Shown piece after piece: positions 28-6,707 of a stretch of 14,508 nucleotides of DNA. The position numbers and the translations under genes were made by a program. The DNA comes from a virus: the UHGV virus genome UHGV-0180765; one strand, written 5' to 3'. Positions within the stretch are counted from its first letter, which is position 1, and the number at the start of each line of letters is the position of its first letter. The notes under the pieces were generated by a model. The model worked only from the letters and a program-made list of their open reading frames with translations. It was not told the DNA's origin and searched no databases.

Positions 28-585
28 CTATACGATGCATGGATTACTCCGGATACCGCCAATCACCAGCCTGCCGTGCGGGTCGTCGTAAGCCAGTGCC
101 TGCTGCTGACCGAGTATTTTGTTGATTACCTCAATCACCGTTTCACCGTGATCAGGCTGAACATCAGGAATAACACCCGACGGCGCACCGCTGTTCACCA
201 CCTCAATGCCGAAAGGCGCAGCAAGCGCCTGCGCAATCTGCACCAGCGAGCGTCCGTTAAACTGTGTCGGTTCGGCTGCACAGTCAATCAGGTCAGCCGT
301 CAGACTACGTCCGGCAATACCGGTGCTGACCGAACGGGAATCGTAACGAACGGGCGTCGCCTCCACCCAGCCGGTGATCACCAGCTCATCACCAATCAGC
401 ACTTCCACTTTTGAACCGTTTTTAATGCGCGGCTGAAGCGTGGTGATACCCTCATCTCCCGGCCACTGGCGGGTGATCTCCACACTGAAATCCCGCGCCA
501 GCCGTTCAATACCGGCACCGATGCGCACCGATGTCCAGCCATTCCACTCCCGGCCATTTACCCGTAGCGTGACATTGTCGTTCAT
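28..585 (-). CDS. putative phage tail/baseplate protein (possibly a short or truncated Mu P / P2 gpD-like hub); assignment weak
   Basis: 185-aa ORF whose ATG (583-585) overlaps the stop of the upstream 507-aa ORF (ATGA coupling). Composition and gene order suggest a tail-module protein. It ends at a stop 27 nt from the window edge, much shorter than hub proteins of this family, so it may be frameshifted or truncated. No alignment was possible. Confidence 0.3.
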   Translation of the reverse strand: MNDNVTLRVNGREWNGWTSVRIGAGIERLARDFSVEITRQWPGDEGITTLQPRIKNGSKVEVLIGDELVITGWVEATPVRYDSRSVSTGIAGRSLTADLIDCAAEPTQFNGRSLVQIAQALAAPFGIEVVNSGAPSGVIPDVQPDHGETVIEVINKILGQQQALAYDDPHGRLVIGGIRSNPCIV

Positions 586-2105
586 TGCACTGGCACCTTC
601 AGAGGGATCACCGGCACAAAGCCGGGATGCGTAATGGCATTACGCCGGATAATGTCCGCGTCACGCGCCGCGTTATCAAACCAGGTCGCCGCCAGCACCA
701 GCGCGGGTAAAACCTCATCCGGTGTGCGCTGAATGATCCGTGCAGACTGTTCAAGGCGCGTGTTGATATCCGCATTCAGATCTGCTTTCACCCGGCGCAG
801 CGCCAGAAACAGCGCATCGCTGGTTGTACGGGACAACTCCTTATCAATTGCCGTATTCAGTGTGTCGCGAATGTCAGTCAGTTCTTCCCACGTCGGCAGG
901 TCAACCGTGTTTTTCACCGCCGGTGCATTGTTCAGTGCCGGATGCGTGACGGAAGGCCAGCCAGTGCTCTGCGCGGGTGTTGTTGCCTGCCCCACTGCGG
1001 AATTCTGCATCACCGCGGAAGTTGTTGGCGCAGGCAATCGGGTGACGGCATACGCCGCTTCGCTGATTGCGGTCGTACGAAGGGTGCTGGCAACCACGTT
1101 ACGCTGCTGCGTCGCCGTGGCGGTGGTTTTACTGTCCGTTTTCCAGACGCCGCGCGGTTGCAGATCGCTGCCGAGGCTGACACCGGAAAGCGTTTTGATC
1201 ATGGTGACCAGGTCGCTGGCGTTACCATAAAGGCGTTTCCCGGTACGCCACATTTTCTGCACCTGCTCAACGAAATTTTTGCCTGACGATGGCGGCGGCA
1301 GAAGTACCGAGATATCCCCCTGCAACAGCCTGGCGGCATCCGATACGGCAGAATCCACCACTTTCATCGCATCAGAAACATACCCAAGCATTGTGCTGGC
1401 ATTACCGATAACGTCGTTCTGCACGAAATCCGCCACACCATCGATACTGAAACCGCTGAAGCTGTCACTGATGCGGTCATCCAGTGCAGAACAGGATGAC
1501 ATCAGCGTCTGCGCCGTCGCCGCACCTGATGTGGGGTAAGAGAGTTCTCCTGCTTCGACAAACTTCAGGTCAAAGCGGACAATACGCCCTTCACTTTTCG
1601 ATGTGCTGACCCGAACTTCCCCGTCAACACAGACTTTCAGCTCACCATATGTCGGGTGGACAAGCGTGCCGGGACCGGGTTTATTCAGCGCTTCAATCAG
1701 GCGATCGCGCTGGTCAAAGCAGTCATCTCCCACCACATAAGCTGTGATGGACGGGCGGAAAGTGACTTTTCCCAGATCTTCGGTATGGCGTAACGACTGG
1801 ATAGTGGTGATATCACCGGTTACGACATCAACCAGGTCTTTGGTTTCATAACCGAGATATGTGTGTTTGAGAGCATCTTTTACCCAAGCTGGAGTGGCGA
1901 ACGTTTTACCCCTGCTGATGAGGTATTCACTGATTTCGCTGTACCACATGTGGCTGAGTGCATTCTGGGAAAGACTGCGTCTCTCGCGCCACGGTTTAAG
2001 CACCATGCGAAAGCATTTGCCGTCCTCCAGATAAGGCTGGATCTGCCGACCGATAGCGGTGAAGTTACCGCGATGCAATTTGATACCATCTTGTGGGAGG
2101 TTCAC
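582..2105 (-). CDS. putative Mu gp N-like DNA circulation / tail assembly protein
   Basis: 507-aa ORF with GTG start at 2105 preceded by GGAGGTG (RBS); Ser/Thr/Ala-rich central region; translationally coupled to the downstream 185-aa ORF. Size and gene order resemble the Mu N-P pair found in Mu-like tail modules of SfV-type phages. Family call is from memory and synteny only. Confidence 0.4.
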
Positions 2106-2380
2106 GCTTCACCTCCGCAGAGGTCAAACGTTGGATGCAAGATATCGCAGGTGCATTTCTGCATCTGTGACTGGTTGAAAGGTGTTCTGATTGTCGTTTG
2201 CACTTTGAGTCCCCTCAAAGCGCAGAAGTCACCGGAGTTGTTCAGGCTCCGATGACATGATTATGGCGAGTTGATTATGATGAATCAATAGGTTCTTATG
2301 TCAAATGGACACTAGATCCAAAGGAGGGTAACAATTATCATAGCCAATGAGATTAATCTCATTTTTAATAAGGAAATTTC

Positions 2381-3799
2381 ATGAAATATTTCTCAACTGG
2401 TTTTTATGTTTCAAACTCCACATCTCTAGCTGAGATCTTTAATGAATGTTTTTCTTGGGTAAACGACTCACCACATACAACTTTTATTCCAGCACAATTA
2501 GTATGTGATTATAAAAGCGAGGAGTACTTCATAGAGTCTAAAAATGAAAGAATTGATATAATAACTTATAAAAACAAAGATACTAGTTTAGGCTGTTTTA
2601 GGTATTCGAAAATATCTGAGCCACACAAATGGGTAACAGATATTTCAATTAATAAAAATCTCAAAACTGATACCATGTGGATTCAGGTGGAATCTAGCGT
2701 TGTAAGCCAAGATGCAGCTTATCTAGCCCCGCAACCTAAGAAACCATTAGTTGTTATGAGATTGATTGATAAATTTCCTGGTGGTCTTGATGATATTTTC
2801 AAGGTGTCAGTCGAACCTCATTCCTTAGATGATACTGATGAACATTTAAATATAGCAGCTAAAGTTATAAATGGTGAAACTGACAACAGACTACCAATAA
2901 TATACGTTAGCTCCAAGTATTTTTTTAATGAACATGCTCACAATATCATCCCAGAACGCCTTGCAAGAAAGGTATGCGGATTAGCACATGTATTAATTGA
3001 GCCTAGCAATAGACTATTTTCTATTAAGCTAAAAAATGAGACAAATGCTAAAAATGCCTATGCTGGTGCTGTTGGTATCTATTGGCCACGGGGTCAAAAT
3101 ATCAGTTTTTATCGCCGTGGTGAGAAAACCGCAAAAGAATTTGAAGATGAGTTATTTGATGATGTTGTAAGAGCTACGACTACAATGGCTCCTGTCTCAG
3201 ATAGTGGATGGAGTGAGATACAAACCAGAAAAACGAAAGACTCTATTAACTCACTCAAAGAAAGAGGAGAATACACACGCGAACTGATGGCGCTTTACGA
3301 AGCCGATAATGTTGCGAAAGATGACCAAATAGAAGATCTTAAGCATAAGATCTCCTCTTTAGAGCACAGAGTACGCACTCTTCAATCACAAGCTTCAGCC
3401 CAAGGAAGCATTGCGCTTAATGCTGGTGAAGAGACTGACTTTTTTGATGGAGAAATCAAAAATATAATTATTGACGCACTAAAAACTGCCATAAAAAATA
3501 AAAATGAATTTGGTAGAAGCTACCATATCTTATCATCCCTAATTGCCAATAATGAATACAATAAAGAAACCGAGAGTCGCCGCCAATTACTTAAAAGGAC
3601 TTTAACAGGTTACAGAAGCATGGATAGCGCAACACAAAGAAATTTAAAGGACTTAGGTTTCAGTGCGTCAAGCGATGGAAAACACTGGAAGTTAACATAT
3701 AATGAAGACCCTCGATATTCCTATATTTTACCTAAAACAGGAAGTGACCACAGAGGTTCTTTAAATGCTATCTCGGATATAGCAAATATTATTTTCTAA
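2381..3799 (+). CDS. hypothetical protein, low-GC orphan gene (function unknown; candidate accessory/defence cargo)
   Basis: 472-aa ORF with AAGGAAA RBS 4-5 nt before ATG 2381. Strongly AT-rich relative to the flanking lambda-like genes (by eye, not computed). Opposite strand to both flanking operons. Predicted coiled-coil segment in the middle (LKHKISSLEHRVRTLQSQ). No family recognised. Confidence 0.7.
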   Translation: MKYFSTGFYVSNSTSLAEIFNECFSWVNDSPHTTFIPAQLVCDYKSEEYFIESKNERIDIITYKNKDTSLGCFRYSKISEPHKWVTDISINKNLKTDTMWIQVESSVVSQDAAYLAPQPKKPLVVMRLIDKFPGGLDDIFKVSVEPHSLDDTDEHLNIAAKVINGETDNRLPIIYVSSKYFFNEHAHNIIPERLARKVCGLAHVLIEPSNRLFSIKLKNETNAKNAYAGAVGIYWPRGQNISFYRRGEKTAKEFEDELFDDVVRATTTMAPVSDSGWSEIQTRKTKDSINSLKERGEYTRELMALYEADNVAKDDQIEDLKHKISSLEHRVRTLQSQASAQGSIALNAGEETDFFDGEIKNIIIDALKTAIKNKNEFGRSYHILSSLIANNEYNKETESRRQLLKRTLTGYRSMDSATQRNLKDLGFSASSDGKHWKLTYNEDPRYSYILPKTGSDHRGSLNAISDIANIIF

Positions 3800-3806
3800 T
3801 AAATTT

Positions 3807-3834
3807 CAATAGCACTCACAAATGAGTGCTATTG
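3807..3834. terminator. strong hairpin between convergent genes (putative bidirectional terminator)
   Basis: Inverted repeat caatagcactca / tgagtgctattg with 4-nt loop (caaa), 12 nt after the stop of the 472-aa ORF and 17 nt from the stop of the convergent 84-aa ORF. T-tracts on both sides are weak. Confidence 0.5.
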
Positions 3835-3850
3835 TTGCCACTGAATTATT

Positions 3851-4105
3851 CTATTTAAATTCAACTTTTATCCCTTTGTTTAGCAGGGCATCAGAAACTG
3901 CCTTTTTTGTAACATTTATCCCTGCAAGCAATGCTTTATGCATTGGTCCCTTAAAAATCTCTACTTCTTCTTCAGTGAGTTTAGGCAATGTAATATAAAT
4001 AACATCTTTCATCTGCTTGTTTTTATAGCATGAGCTTCTTGTGTGCTTACAATCGATATTTTCTTTATTTCCCAAAACATCATCCCCTTTATAATTCAGT
4101 TCCAC
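3851..4105 (-). CDS. hypothetical small protein (AT-rich), doubtful
   Basis: 84-aa ORF from GTG 4105 with no obvious RBS; an internal ATG at 4012 (53-aa product) has only a weak RBS. It lies in the low-GC island directly downstream of ren in the pR-direction transcript. Coding status uncertain. Confidence 0.3.
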   Translation of the reverse strand: MELNYKGDDVLGNKENIDCKHTRSSCYKNKQMKDVIYITLPKLTEEEVEIFKGPMHKALLAGINVTKKAVSDALLNKGIKVEFK

Positions 4106-4169
4106 ACATCAATTATTTAGTTATCACGAATGTCGTAAAACTAAAATTAGTAACAATAATTGCTCATAC

Positions 4170-4457
4170 CTACCCTCTTCCATATAAAGCCAACACCCGC
4201 TTCATCGCGGCACTTTGACGACACTCCTTAAAAATCAGATTCGTGCTCACCTTTCCTTCCCGTTCTTCTCTGGTAGCGAACCGGTAATACACCGTTCGCC
4301 AGACCTTACCATCAACGACCAGGATTCCTGCCCGCGCCATTTTAGCCGCAGCCTGATTTATGCTGGTTACGGTTGCGCCTGTTACCGCGGCAACGTCCTG
4401 CGCACAGAAGTTCTTATGAGTCCCCAGGTAATGAATAATTGCCTCTTTGCCCGTCAT
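4170..4457 (-). CDS. ren: Ren protein (lambda Ren family)
   Basis: 95-aa product MTGKEAIIHYLGTHKNFCAQDVAAVTGATVTSINQAAAKMARAG... matches lambda Ren as I recall it over essentially its full length. Its start overlaps the P stop (ATGA), as in lambda. Confidence 0.85.
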   Translation of the reverse strand: MTGKEAIIHYLGTHKNFCAQDVAAVTGATVTSINQAAAKMARAGILVVDGKVWRTVYYRFATREEREGKVSTNLIFKECRQSAAMKRVLALYGRG

Positions 4458-6167: not shown

Positions 6168-6707
6168 TCATATTGCCCCCAACATGGTGGTAACCATCGC
6201 CATCAATGGACCAGCCAGATCCGGGTCCACACGAAACATCGACACAATACCTTCACTCATCTCCTTCAGTTTCTGGTGGCGTGGTGCGTTGAGAATGACA
6301 GCCTGTTTTGCCTCACTGAGTTCCTTTTCCATTTCAGCCAACCGAGTCATGAAGCTATCCTGCTCAACCAGGTAACCGCGATATTCCAGCGGTAGTACCG
6401 CCAGAATTGCCGGGGTCAGTTCACGCACGTTATTTCGGTATTTTTCAGAATCGAATTTGTTATCGAGGAAGCGGAACAGCTTCTGGCGTGCACGGCTGAC
6501 ATCATCAGGGAAATCGATGGTGCCGCCGCCCTGCTCCCGATACTCATTCACAATGAGTGCGGCAACAACATCCTGATTATCTGCAGCCGACCAGGCGCGG
6601 ACGGCATCACGGATTTTTTCGTGGCCTGGCACCTGTTTTGTTTGAGAACGATTTATCACCGCAGTCGGGCTAAATCCGCTAGTCTGTTGGTATGTAAGTG
6701 GTTGCAT
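6168..6707 (-). CDS. YdaT-like protein (CII-position regulator)
   Basis: 179-aa ORF with AAGGAG RBS 6 nt before ATG 6707. Lies between the cro-like gene and O, where cII sits in lambda. Motifs EYREQGGG and TPAILAVLPLEYR resemble the Rac prophage YdaT family as I recall it. Family call is from memory. Confidence 0.5.
   Translation of the reverse strand: MQPLTYQQTSGFSPTAVINRSQTKQVPGHEKIRDAVRAWSAADNQDVVAALIVNEYREQGGGTIDFPDDVSRARQKLFRFLDNKFDSEKYRNNVRELTPAILAVLPLEYRGYLVEQDSFMTRLAEMEKELSEAKQAVILNAPRHQKLKEMSEGIVSMFRVDPDLAGPLMAMVTTMLGAI

Follow-up and report, generated by a model that had tools for sequence, protein, structure and literature searches.

What is a single AT-rich gene doing in the early-right region of a lambdoid prophage, on the strand opposite to the genes on either side of it? 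The question is raised by the viral genome UHGV-0180765, a stretch of 14,508 nucleotides that is referred to here, at its full length, as the window. Within it, an open reading frame (ORF) of 472 amino acids lies in an AT-rich island between the genes ren and ninB. We propose that its product is a stand-alone, single-chain anti-phage defence protein, in which an N-terminal module homologous to that of the defence protein HEC-07 would be followed by a C-terminal HicA-like ribonuclease (RNase) effector. On the sequence comparisons and the structure prediction described below, we put the probability of this reading at roughly 60%. Single-gene RNase defences are already known as a class and HEC-07 is included in PADLOC; the present gene is a plausible candidate, not a surprise of kind.

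Predicted relationship to HEC-07

HEC-07 (Hma-embedded candidate 07, Payne et al.) is among seven systems that reduced plaquing in E. coli, and has been described as having an AdoMetDC-like N-domain, a thioredoxin-like domain that lacks CxxC, and a C-terminal RelE-family RNase with a conserved histidine, H543 (bioRxiv 10.1101/2024.01.29.577857). An earlier reading of the window, made from the sequence alone (the sequence-only reading), had proposed a PADLOC scan of the 472-residue protein. The scan gave one match for the whole protein, namely HEC-07 (E = 1e-9, 35.9 bits). The match lies in the N-terminal two thirds, at residues 83-340, and covers positions 107-372 of the 553 in the profile, or 48% of its length. 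The HEC-07 profiles (PADLOC PDLC04158/04159/04161) also matched all of ten distant members of the family, with E values down to 1.7e-16 and over profile positions ~36-372 only. Beyond position ~372, the C-terminal third of the profile is matched neither by the window protein nor by the ten distant members.

The N-terminal α/β domain followed by a CxxC-less thioredoxin-like domain, as described for HEC-07, is found in the present protein. On these profile alignments the N-terminal two thirds appear homologous to the HEC-07 module, and we read the gene as an effector-swapped relative of HEC-07. A RelE effector was looked for and not found, and the gene is therefore classed as a HicA-ended variant, not as HEC-07 proper. 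A search with the N-terminal profile alone, for relatives carrying other effectors or for true HEC-07 sequences, returned only the same family; because true HEC-07 sequences were not recovered, the difference in effector is drawn from the profile coordinates and the published description of HEC-07.

Predicted domain structure

AlphaFold2 was used to predict the structure from 38 homologues, with a mean local confidence (pLDDT) of 83.5 and a global score (pTM) of 0.61. The model has five successive parts, listed with their coordinates in Table 1, and it agrees with the division into an N-terminal region, a coiled coil and a C-terminal region made by the sequence-only reading. The chain is predicted to begin with a helix-grip domain, resembling START and Bet v 1 proteins, in which W26, S30, W84 and T86 are conserved. 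The thioredoxin-fold domain that follows carries the most conserved motifs of the family, these being LPIVYVS, GLAHVxVEP and YGGAVGIYWP, together with D137, P172, H203 and E207. After the long helices and a linker of low confidence comes a three-helix region containing the invariant residues E358 and R379; one possibility is that this region acts as an inhibitor, in cis, of the RNase domain that ends the chain.

A PDB search with the family profile returned only coiled-coil noise, as did Pfam for the coiled-coil segment, and a PDB search with the C-terminal profile gave nothing significant. An ATPase or a membrane protein was considered and rejected: as already remarked from the sequence, there is no Walker A motif and no transmembrane segment (the maximum Kyte-Doolittle value is 0.75), and there is no CxxC either.

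The C-terminal domain

The best structural matches of the predicted C-terminal domain are HicA toxins, with which it shares an α-β-β-β-α fold like that of double-stranded RNA-binding domains; RelE does not occur among the top 60 matches. By sequence the similarity is weaker. The PADLOC HicA-like profile matched 16 of 24 C-terminal slices taken from the family (best E = 9.8e-7; 0.0055 for the slice of the window protein) and seven of the ten distant full-length members. Pfam HicA_toxin was the top family among the weak matches, with six of the 24 slices and a best E of 0.0042, while the full window protein gave no match above the gathering score to Pfam HicA (PF07927 / COG1724).

Conservation points in the same direction. 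All 152 of the 152 family members have H435, although their median identity to the window protein is 28%, and K437, D443, R445, K452, D456, R458 and N462 are nearly invariant. Aligned by hhalign, H435 falls on His23 of E. coli HicA; the HicA sequence used scored 8.7e-11 against PHROG 'toxin' family 353. The sequence-only reading found no motif that it could assign in the protein, a statement now superseded by the conserved HicA-type G-x-H (G433, H435).

HicA depends on its Gly-x-His motif both for being toxic and for acting as an RNase, and HicB buries the motif (PMC11594946). No HicB antitoxin was found next to the gene: there is no conserved neighbour, and the only other ORF of the island, of 84 amino acids, has no family match. 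The C-terminal domain is thus most likely a HicA-like RNase with the motif G433-x-H435, as judged from the predicted fold and the alignments.

A real gene in a large unnamed family

The ORF is a real gene under purifying selection. Compared with the copy in E. coli VCSW7 there are 19 nucleotide and 6 amino-acid differences, and the ratio of non-synonymous to synonymous change (dN/dS) is 0.12; against a 77%-identical copy in a P4-like island, the proportion of synonymous sites that differ (pS) is 0.77, which is saturated, and that of non-synonymous sites (pN) is 0.15.

The sequence-only reading took the ORF for an orphan, which it is not. At 90% identity, a word-indexed search placed proteins of ~470 residues in 74 clusters, from Enterobacterales, Pseudomonas, Caulobacter and others. 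When the family profile was run exhaustively with HMMER, 3,508 representatives (clustered at 50% identity) were obtained at E <= 1e-3 and 1,044 at E <= 1e-30; most of the best 150 cover the full length, at ~465 residues. In a scan of GTDB species genomes, 132 loci were confirmed, in Pseudomonadota, Planctomycetota, Acidobacteriota, Verrucomicrobiota, Gemmatimonadota and Nitrospira. All of the names carried by proteins of the family are 'hypothetical protein', the 472-residue protein has no significant match in Pfam or NCBIfam, and a literature search by protein accession found no paper. That this might be a common phage gene was considered and rejected, as tblastn found no match among 50,697 phage records and a fold search of BFVD gave none at E <= 0.001.

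Copies in different contexts are similar only over the ORF itself (2370-3803), and the contexts are diverse. The 126 ORFs flanking 32 distant homologues contain 123 Pfam families, each of them in three ORFs at most, and a conserved partner gene is lacking. Close relatives are found as solitary cargo adjoining a P4-like integrase / DUF927 island at two chromosomal sites, within an integrative and conjugative element of Dickeya, and as the main cargo of 5.9-kb ColE1-type mobilizable plasmids of Klebsiella. In Pseudomonas a relative is surrounded by toxin-antitoxin genes (Fic, HipA and BrnA). The immediate neighbours of some distant homologues include MADS genes (mad3, mad6 and mad8, in a few cases), CBASS genes or restriction-modification/methyltransferase genes.

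It is worth adding that in the Klebsiella plasmid NZ_CP028803.2 (locus L018, 3836-5838) a 48%-identical homologue is located directly 3' of a TraY-domain / RelE-ParE toxin-antitoxin pair on the same strand, an arrangement in which an operon is possible.

The AT-rich island as a cargo cassette

The ~1.9-kb island is a cargo cassette in a variable slot, between ren and ninB, of a lambdoid prophage. The sequence-only reading described an abrupt shift to AT-rich composition around 2250 and a return at the ren stop (4170), and calculation agrees: in the sliding-window profile GC content falls from ~0.50-0.56 to 0.22-0.40 at ~2250 and rises again at ~4165-4175. The island is essentially the lowest-GC 1.9-kb stretch of the whole window. 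GC at third codon positions (GC3) is 0.27 in the 472-codon ORF, compared with 0.50-0.60 in ren, P, O, bet and exo.

Homology to other lambdoid prophages stops at 2293 and restarts at 4179-4191. These are the points of exchange, and the position of the second means that the last 3-7 codons of ren are specific to the cassette. From 1774 rightwards, over a span of 9.7 kb, the window shares 99.4% identity with a lambdoid prophage in E. coli JS01, where the genes run cI-like repressor / cro-like / ydaT-like / O / P / ren / [island] / ybcN(ninB) / ninE / ybcO / rusA / Q; this prophage, with the same island, also has lysis and head genes. Since O, P, ren and ninB are all on the minus strand, both flanks belong to one early-right operon read from the promoter pR, and the 472-codon gene is antisense to it. 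The opposite orientation noted in the sequence-only reading thus stands, while its two flanking operons are in fact one.

Comparison with related prophages, which that reading had proposed, shows the site to be variable. In EC-JS426 ninB follows directly after ren; in JS316 the slot contains two hypothetical genes; in CEC96047 it contains DLP12-type cargo (emrE-ybcK-ybcL-ybcM); and in NMBU-W13E19 it contains IS5 and a DUF4041 protein. Among 5,426 complete E. coli genomes, ren is present in 2,867 and the island in 24, at the same site each time and with 95-99.9% identity. The features expected of a moron or cargo cassette are present, namely foreign composition, expression signals of its own (Shine-Dalgarno sequence, promoter-like sites and hairpin) and variability of the site among related prophages.

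At locus L013 (NZ_CP043406.1, 527-3297), where the slot holds IS5, the accompanying DUF4041 protein has 500 residues, is encoded on the opposite strand and is possibly another cargo of the defence type.

Expression signals and the small convergent ORF

The strong ribosome-binding site noted earlier for the one large ORF of the island, which is on the plus strand, is AAGGA. Upstream of it there are two candidate promoters, both of them consensus matches only: ATGACA-18-TATGAT at 2252-2281 and TGGACA-18-AACAAT at 2306-2335. A perfect 12-bp palindrome just 5' of the ribosome-binding site may be a putative operator; it is absent from copies in other contexts, where similarity begins at 2370. With a second short palindrome, TTGATT-N6-AATCAA, it accounts for what had been described as a repeat-rich upstream region; the palindromes are there, although a repeat-family search of this region detected no repeat family. 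Downstream, the long hairpin seen earlier is a perfect 12-bp stem with a 4-nt loop. It has no good T-run on either strand, and probably acts as a transcript-end or insulator element.

Facing the large ORF across the hairpin is the small convergent ORF of 84 codons, which had been called doubtful and whose coding status is still doubtful. It accompanies the cassette in E. coli and is absent beside homologues elsewhere. Searches of Pfam, PADLOC, PHROGs and NCBIfam assign it to no family, and it has no phage match; a role as partner or antitoxin of the large protein was therefore rejected. In the records it is named 'hypothetical', apart from one RefSeq record in which it is called 'phospholipase D-like', which Pfam does not support. 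The VCSW7 copy (locus L017, 3052-3318) has an in-frame 12-bp insertion, which is compatible with coding and not decisive. The insertion lies just 5' of an internal ATG (MKDVIYITLPKL...), from which a shorter product of 53 residues is possible.

Other features of the prophage

The sequence-only reading placed the island at a deletion junction. A joint does exist, and it lies ~500 bp to the left of the cassette, inside ninB/ybcN at ~1774-1786, where the two homologies of an in-frame chimeric gene meet: the N-terminus of NinB/YbcN and a Mu-like protein of DNA circularisation or the baseplate hub. At the joint the lambdoid prophage has lost its late genes. No genome among the 5,426 complete E. coli genomes spans it; it therefore arose by a deletion or recombination specific to one strain, or else is an assembly chimera. 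Given the ~500 bp between them, and the presence of the cassette in prophages with an intact ninB-nin region, joint and cassette are independent. A link between island and deletion was rejected on the same grounds, and also because in VCSW7 the island lies beside a different truncation of ybcN.

In E. coli VCSW7 (NZ_CP082357.1; L017 1-1405) the truncated ybcN adjoining the island is fused to a fragment of a tail-fibre gene. This is a second, independent decay event, in which the immunity, replication and cargo region has been kept.

The prophage carries one recognised defence gene already, in its other cargo slot: bstA, known for abortive infection. This ORF is also of low GC (GC 0.40, GC3 0.29) and is located directly 3' of the cI-like S24 repressor gene, 4 kb from the cassette. 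In related prophages the bstA slot is taken by different genes, among them those for a DUF6932 protein and a HipA-family kinase. A gene for a 'toxin YdaT domain-containing protein' (6168-6707, minus strand) occupies the place of cII between the cro-like gene and O, and matches related prophages.

Table 1. Coordinates of the features discussed, in window positions; aa, amino acids; a point marks a feature without strand.
Feature	Position	Strand	Basis or remark
Gene for the 472-aa HEC-07-like / HicA-domain protein	2381-3799	+	ORF list, family searches, dN/dS
Predicted helix-grip (START/Bet v 1-like) domain, β-α-α-β(6)-α, aa 1-131	2381-2773	+	AlphaFold2 model
Predicted thioredoxin-fold domain without CxxC, aa ~132-270	2774-3190	+	α/β domain in AlphaFold2 model
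Predicted long helices / coiled coil, aa 277-335	3209-3385	+	AlphaFold2 model; followed by low-confidence disordered linker, aa 336-357
Predicted three-helix region, aa 358-415	3452-3625	+	AlphaFold2 model
Predicted HicA-like α-β-β-β-α domain, aa 416-472	3626-3796	+	AlphaFold2 model
Codon of His435 (G433-K-H435)	3683-3685	+	Aligned to catalytic His23 of E. coli HicA
Low-GC region	2250-4170	.	34.8% GC vs 49.2% in rest of window
Swapped cargo cassette, ren-ninB slot	~2294-4178	.	Border comparison with other lambdoid prophages
Two sigma-70-like promoter candidates	2252-2335	+	Consensus matches only
Perfect 12-bp palindrome GAGATTAATCTC	2349-2360	.	Just 5' of ribosome-binding site
Shine-Dalgarno sequence AAGGA	2370-2374	+	6 nt ahead of ATG
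Hairpin, 12-bp stem / 4-nt loop	3807-3834	.	Between convergent ORFs; -17 kcal/mol, z = -4.9
84-aa ORF, coding status doubtful	3851-4105	-	Co-oriented with pR operon, convergent with 472-aa ORF
ren, resident lambdoid gene, right flank	4170-4457	-	PHROG 142, E = 3.6e-41
In-frame chimera: NinB/YbcN N-terminus (aa 1-110) + Mu-like DNA-circularisation / baseplate-hub protein	582-2105	-	Family matches
bstA, known abortive-infection defence gene, 303 aa	7873-8784	+	PADLOC BstA, E = 7e-122

Proposed function and alternative explanations

From the evidence above we infer a scheme in which the gene would be expressed in the lysogen, and in which RNase activity, autoinhibition and a phage trigger would together produce a defence phenotype. 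With pR repressed, the gene would be transcribed from its own candidate promoter, antisense to the pR operon, and the hairpin would end or insulate the transcript. The HicA domain would be held inactive in cis, in a protein that is probably a coiled-coil dimer, and a separate HicB would not be needed. The START-like / thioredoxin-fold module would sense some cue from the infecting phage and release the RNase, by a logic like that of fused toxin-antitoxin defences such as CapRel(SJ46), which has been discussed for fused HicA proteins. The freed RNase would cut RNA independently of the ribosome through G433-x-H435, shutting down translation, and the infection would be aborted or restricted. During lytic growth of the prophage itself, read-through from pR would run antisense to the gene, which would fit lysogen-specific expression.

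The sequence-only reading suggested a self-contained moron of foreign composition and a candidate defence or exclusion gene. The variable slot, the HEC-07 match, the HicA-like end, the solitary mobile cargo and the presence of BstA in the prophage all favour that suggestion, while the defence itself is something that we infer, here and for every HicA-ended member of the family. Several points weigh against the proposal. The match to HEC-07 covers about half of the profile and misses the effector part, and the evidence on HEC-07 consists of plaque assays in a preprint, with no mutants reported (bioRxiv 10.1101/2024.01.29.577857). The promoters are consensus matches only, and it is from these that expression in the lysogen is deduced. 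The neighbours of the distant homologues are mostly housekeeping genes, and similar PADLOC hits occur in ORFs 5-8 kb away, so that a near-versus-far comparison gives no clean enrichment; on both counts the association with defence islands is suggestive only. The strongest conservation is in the thioredoxin-fold domain and not in the RNase domain, which could mean that the primary activity is another one.

Such a different activity is the basis of one alternative, namely a non-toxic accessory protein with a regulatory or metabolic role, in which the HicA-like fold merely binds RNA, or the START-like and thioredoxin-fold domains hold the real activity as ligand binders or enzymes. START/Bet v 1 folds are typically ligand binders, the motifs most conserved in the family (D137, P172, H203, E207 and GIYWP) do lie in the thioredoxin-fold domain, the similarity to HicA is weak by sequence, and many neighbours are housekeeping genes. 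We nevertheless consider this unlikely: the C-terminal domain keeps G-x-H and several of its basic and acidic residues unchanged, or almost unchanged, among members of ~28% identity, the homology is shared with HEC-07, and the patchy distribution of the gene (24/5,426 E. coli genomes), its AT-richness and its mobility fit accessory immunity better than metabolism. If the domain is indeed a toxin, it could instead serve a fused toxin-antitoxin or addiction module, which would stabilise a mobile element or compete with others, through post-segregational or inter-element killing, and would not defend against phage. A HicA-like toxin domain without a separate antitoxin, carried as the main cargo of 5.9-kb plasmids and also on an integrative and conjugative element and an integrative island, and found among toxin-antitoxin genes in Pseudomonas, is compatible with such a role, and fused HicA proteins have been discussed as single-gene toxin-antitoxin modules (bioRxiv 10.1101/2023.12.08.570793). 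What makes it improbable is that addiction calls for differential stability, for which a single polypeptide provides no evident basis, that the N-terminal module is homologous to that of HEC-07, which reduced plaquing, and that many distant homologues lie in unremarkable parts of the chromosome where no mobile element can be seen.

The gene might finally serve the phage itself, by excluding close relatives from superinfection, or as an anti-defence or host-takeover factor in its own lytic cycle. It does sit in the early-right region adjoining ren, which is itself annotated as exclusion-related. Its orientation against transcription from pR places it outside the lytic programme, however, no homologue was found in the 50,697 phage records and no significant structural match in BFVD, and members of the family are mostly outside prophages; we regard this explanation as very improbable. 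All three alternatives are less well supported than a single-chain defence protein, given the homology to HEC-07, a G-x-H that does not vary, an orientation opposed to the lytic operon, and the lack of matches in collections of phage sequences and structures.

A wider claim can be made for the family, and here we consider the chances to be about even. The members of this large, unnamed and phylogenetically broad family, which at E <= 1e-30 numbers >1,000 clusters of 50% identity, would be immune proteins of a single chain, with a HEC-07-type sensor driving a HicA and not a RelE RNase. This would be a natural effector swap between two unrelated toxin folds, and the first HicB-less defence system with a HicA effector; the conserved site of the thioredoxin-fold domain would be the site that recognises the trigger, or a clamp.

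If the defence reading is true, a widespread single-gene family would be added to the known defences, with a HicA RNase lacking HicB as its effector, and the long-debated biology of HicA toxins would be tied directly to phage immunity. One sensor scaffold, shared with HEC-07, would be seen to couple to either RelE-like or HicA-like nucleases, and would be a good system for studying the recognition of phage by such sensors and the freeing of a toxin in cis. For E. coli genomics, the ren-ninB gap would be marked as a slot for defence cargo, beside the slot adjacent to cI that is occupied here by bstA, and a protein called 'hypothetical' across hundreds of Enterobacterales assemblies would gain a functional hypothesis.

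Comparison with known systems

Among known systems, HEC-07 is similar in being a single gene of ~470-550 codons, in having N-terminal α/β, CxxC-less thioredoxin-like and helical or coiled-coil regions that are homologous by profile, and in ending with a small RNase domain of toxin type with a conserved histidine. The differences are in the effector, RelE-like in HEC-07 and HicA-like, with no RelE feature, in the present protein; and in the location, HEC-07 being embedded in Hma (helicase-methylase-ATPase) and the present gene lying between ren and ninB.

With HicA of type II HicAB systems (PF07927), the final 55-60 residues share the predicted fold and a Gly-x-His aligned with the catalytic histidine (PMC11594946). 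Canonical HicA, however, is a stand-alone protein of 50-100 residues neutralised by an adjacent HicB, whereas here the domain ends a chain of 472 residues, has no HicB nearby and is similar to HicA below the Pfam threshold. Closer in organisation are the fused HicA classes 11-14 of Gerdes (bioRxiv 10.1101/2023.12.08.570793), which are likewise single-gene loci that combine a toxin domain with a larger regulatory or sensor region in cis. Their N-terminal parts are HicB/RNase H-like, all-helical (340-440 residues) or SMC, and none is described with START-like and thioredoxin-fold domains. CapRel(SJ46) resembles the proposed scheme in its autoinhibition lifted by a phage cue, while its toxin is a tRNA pyrophosphokinase.

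Finally, the defence morons of lambdoid phages (rexAB, sieB and BstA) belong to unrelated protein families and the slot here is that between ren and ninB, not one next to cI. In other respects the cassette would be of the same kind, with expression in the lysogen, foreign composition, signals of its own and a fixed, variable slot.

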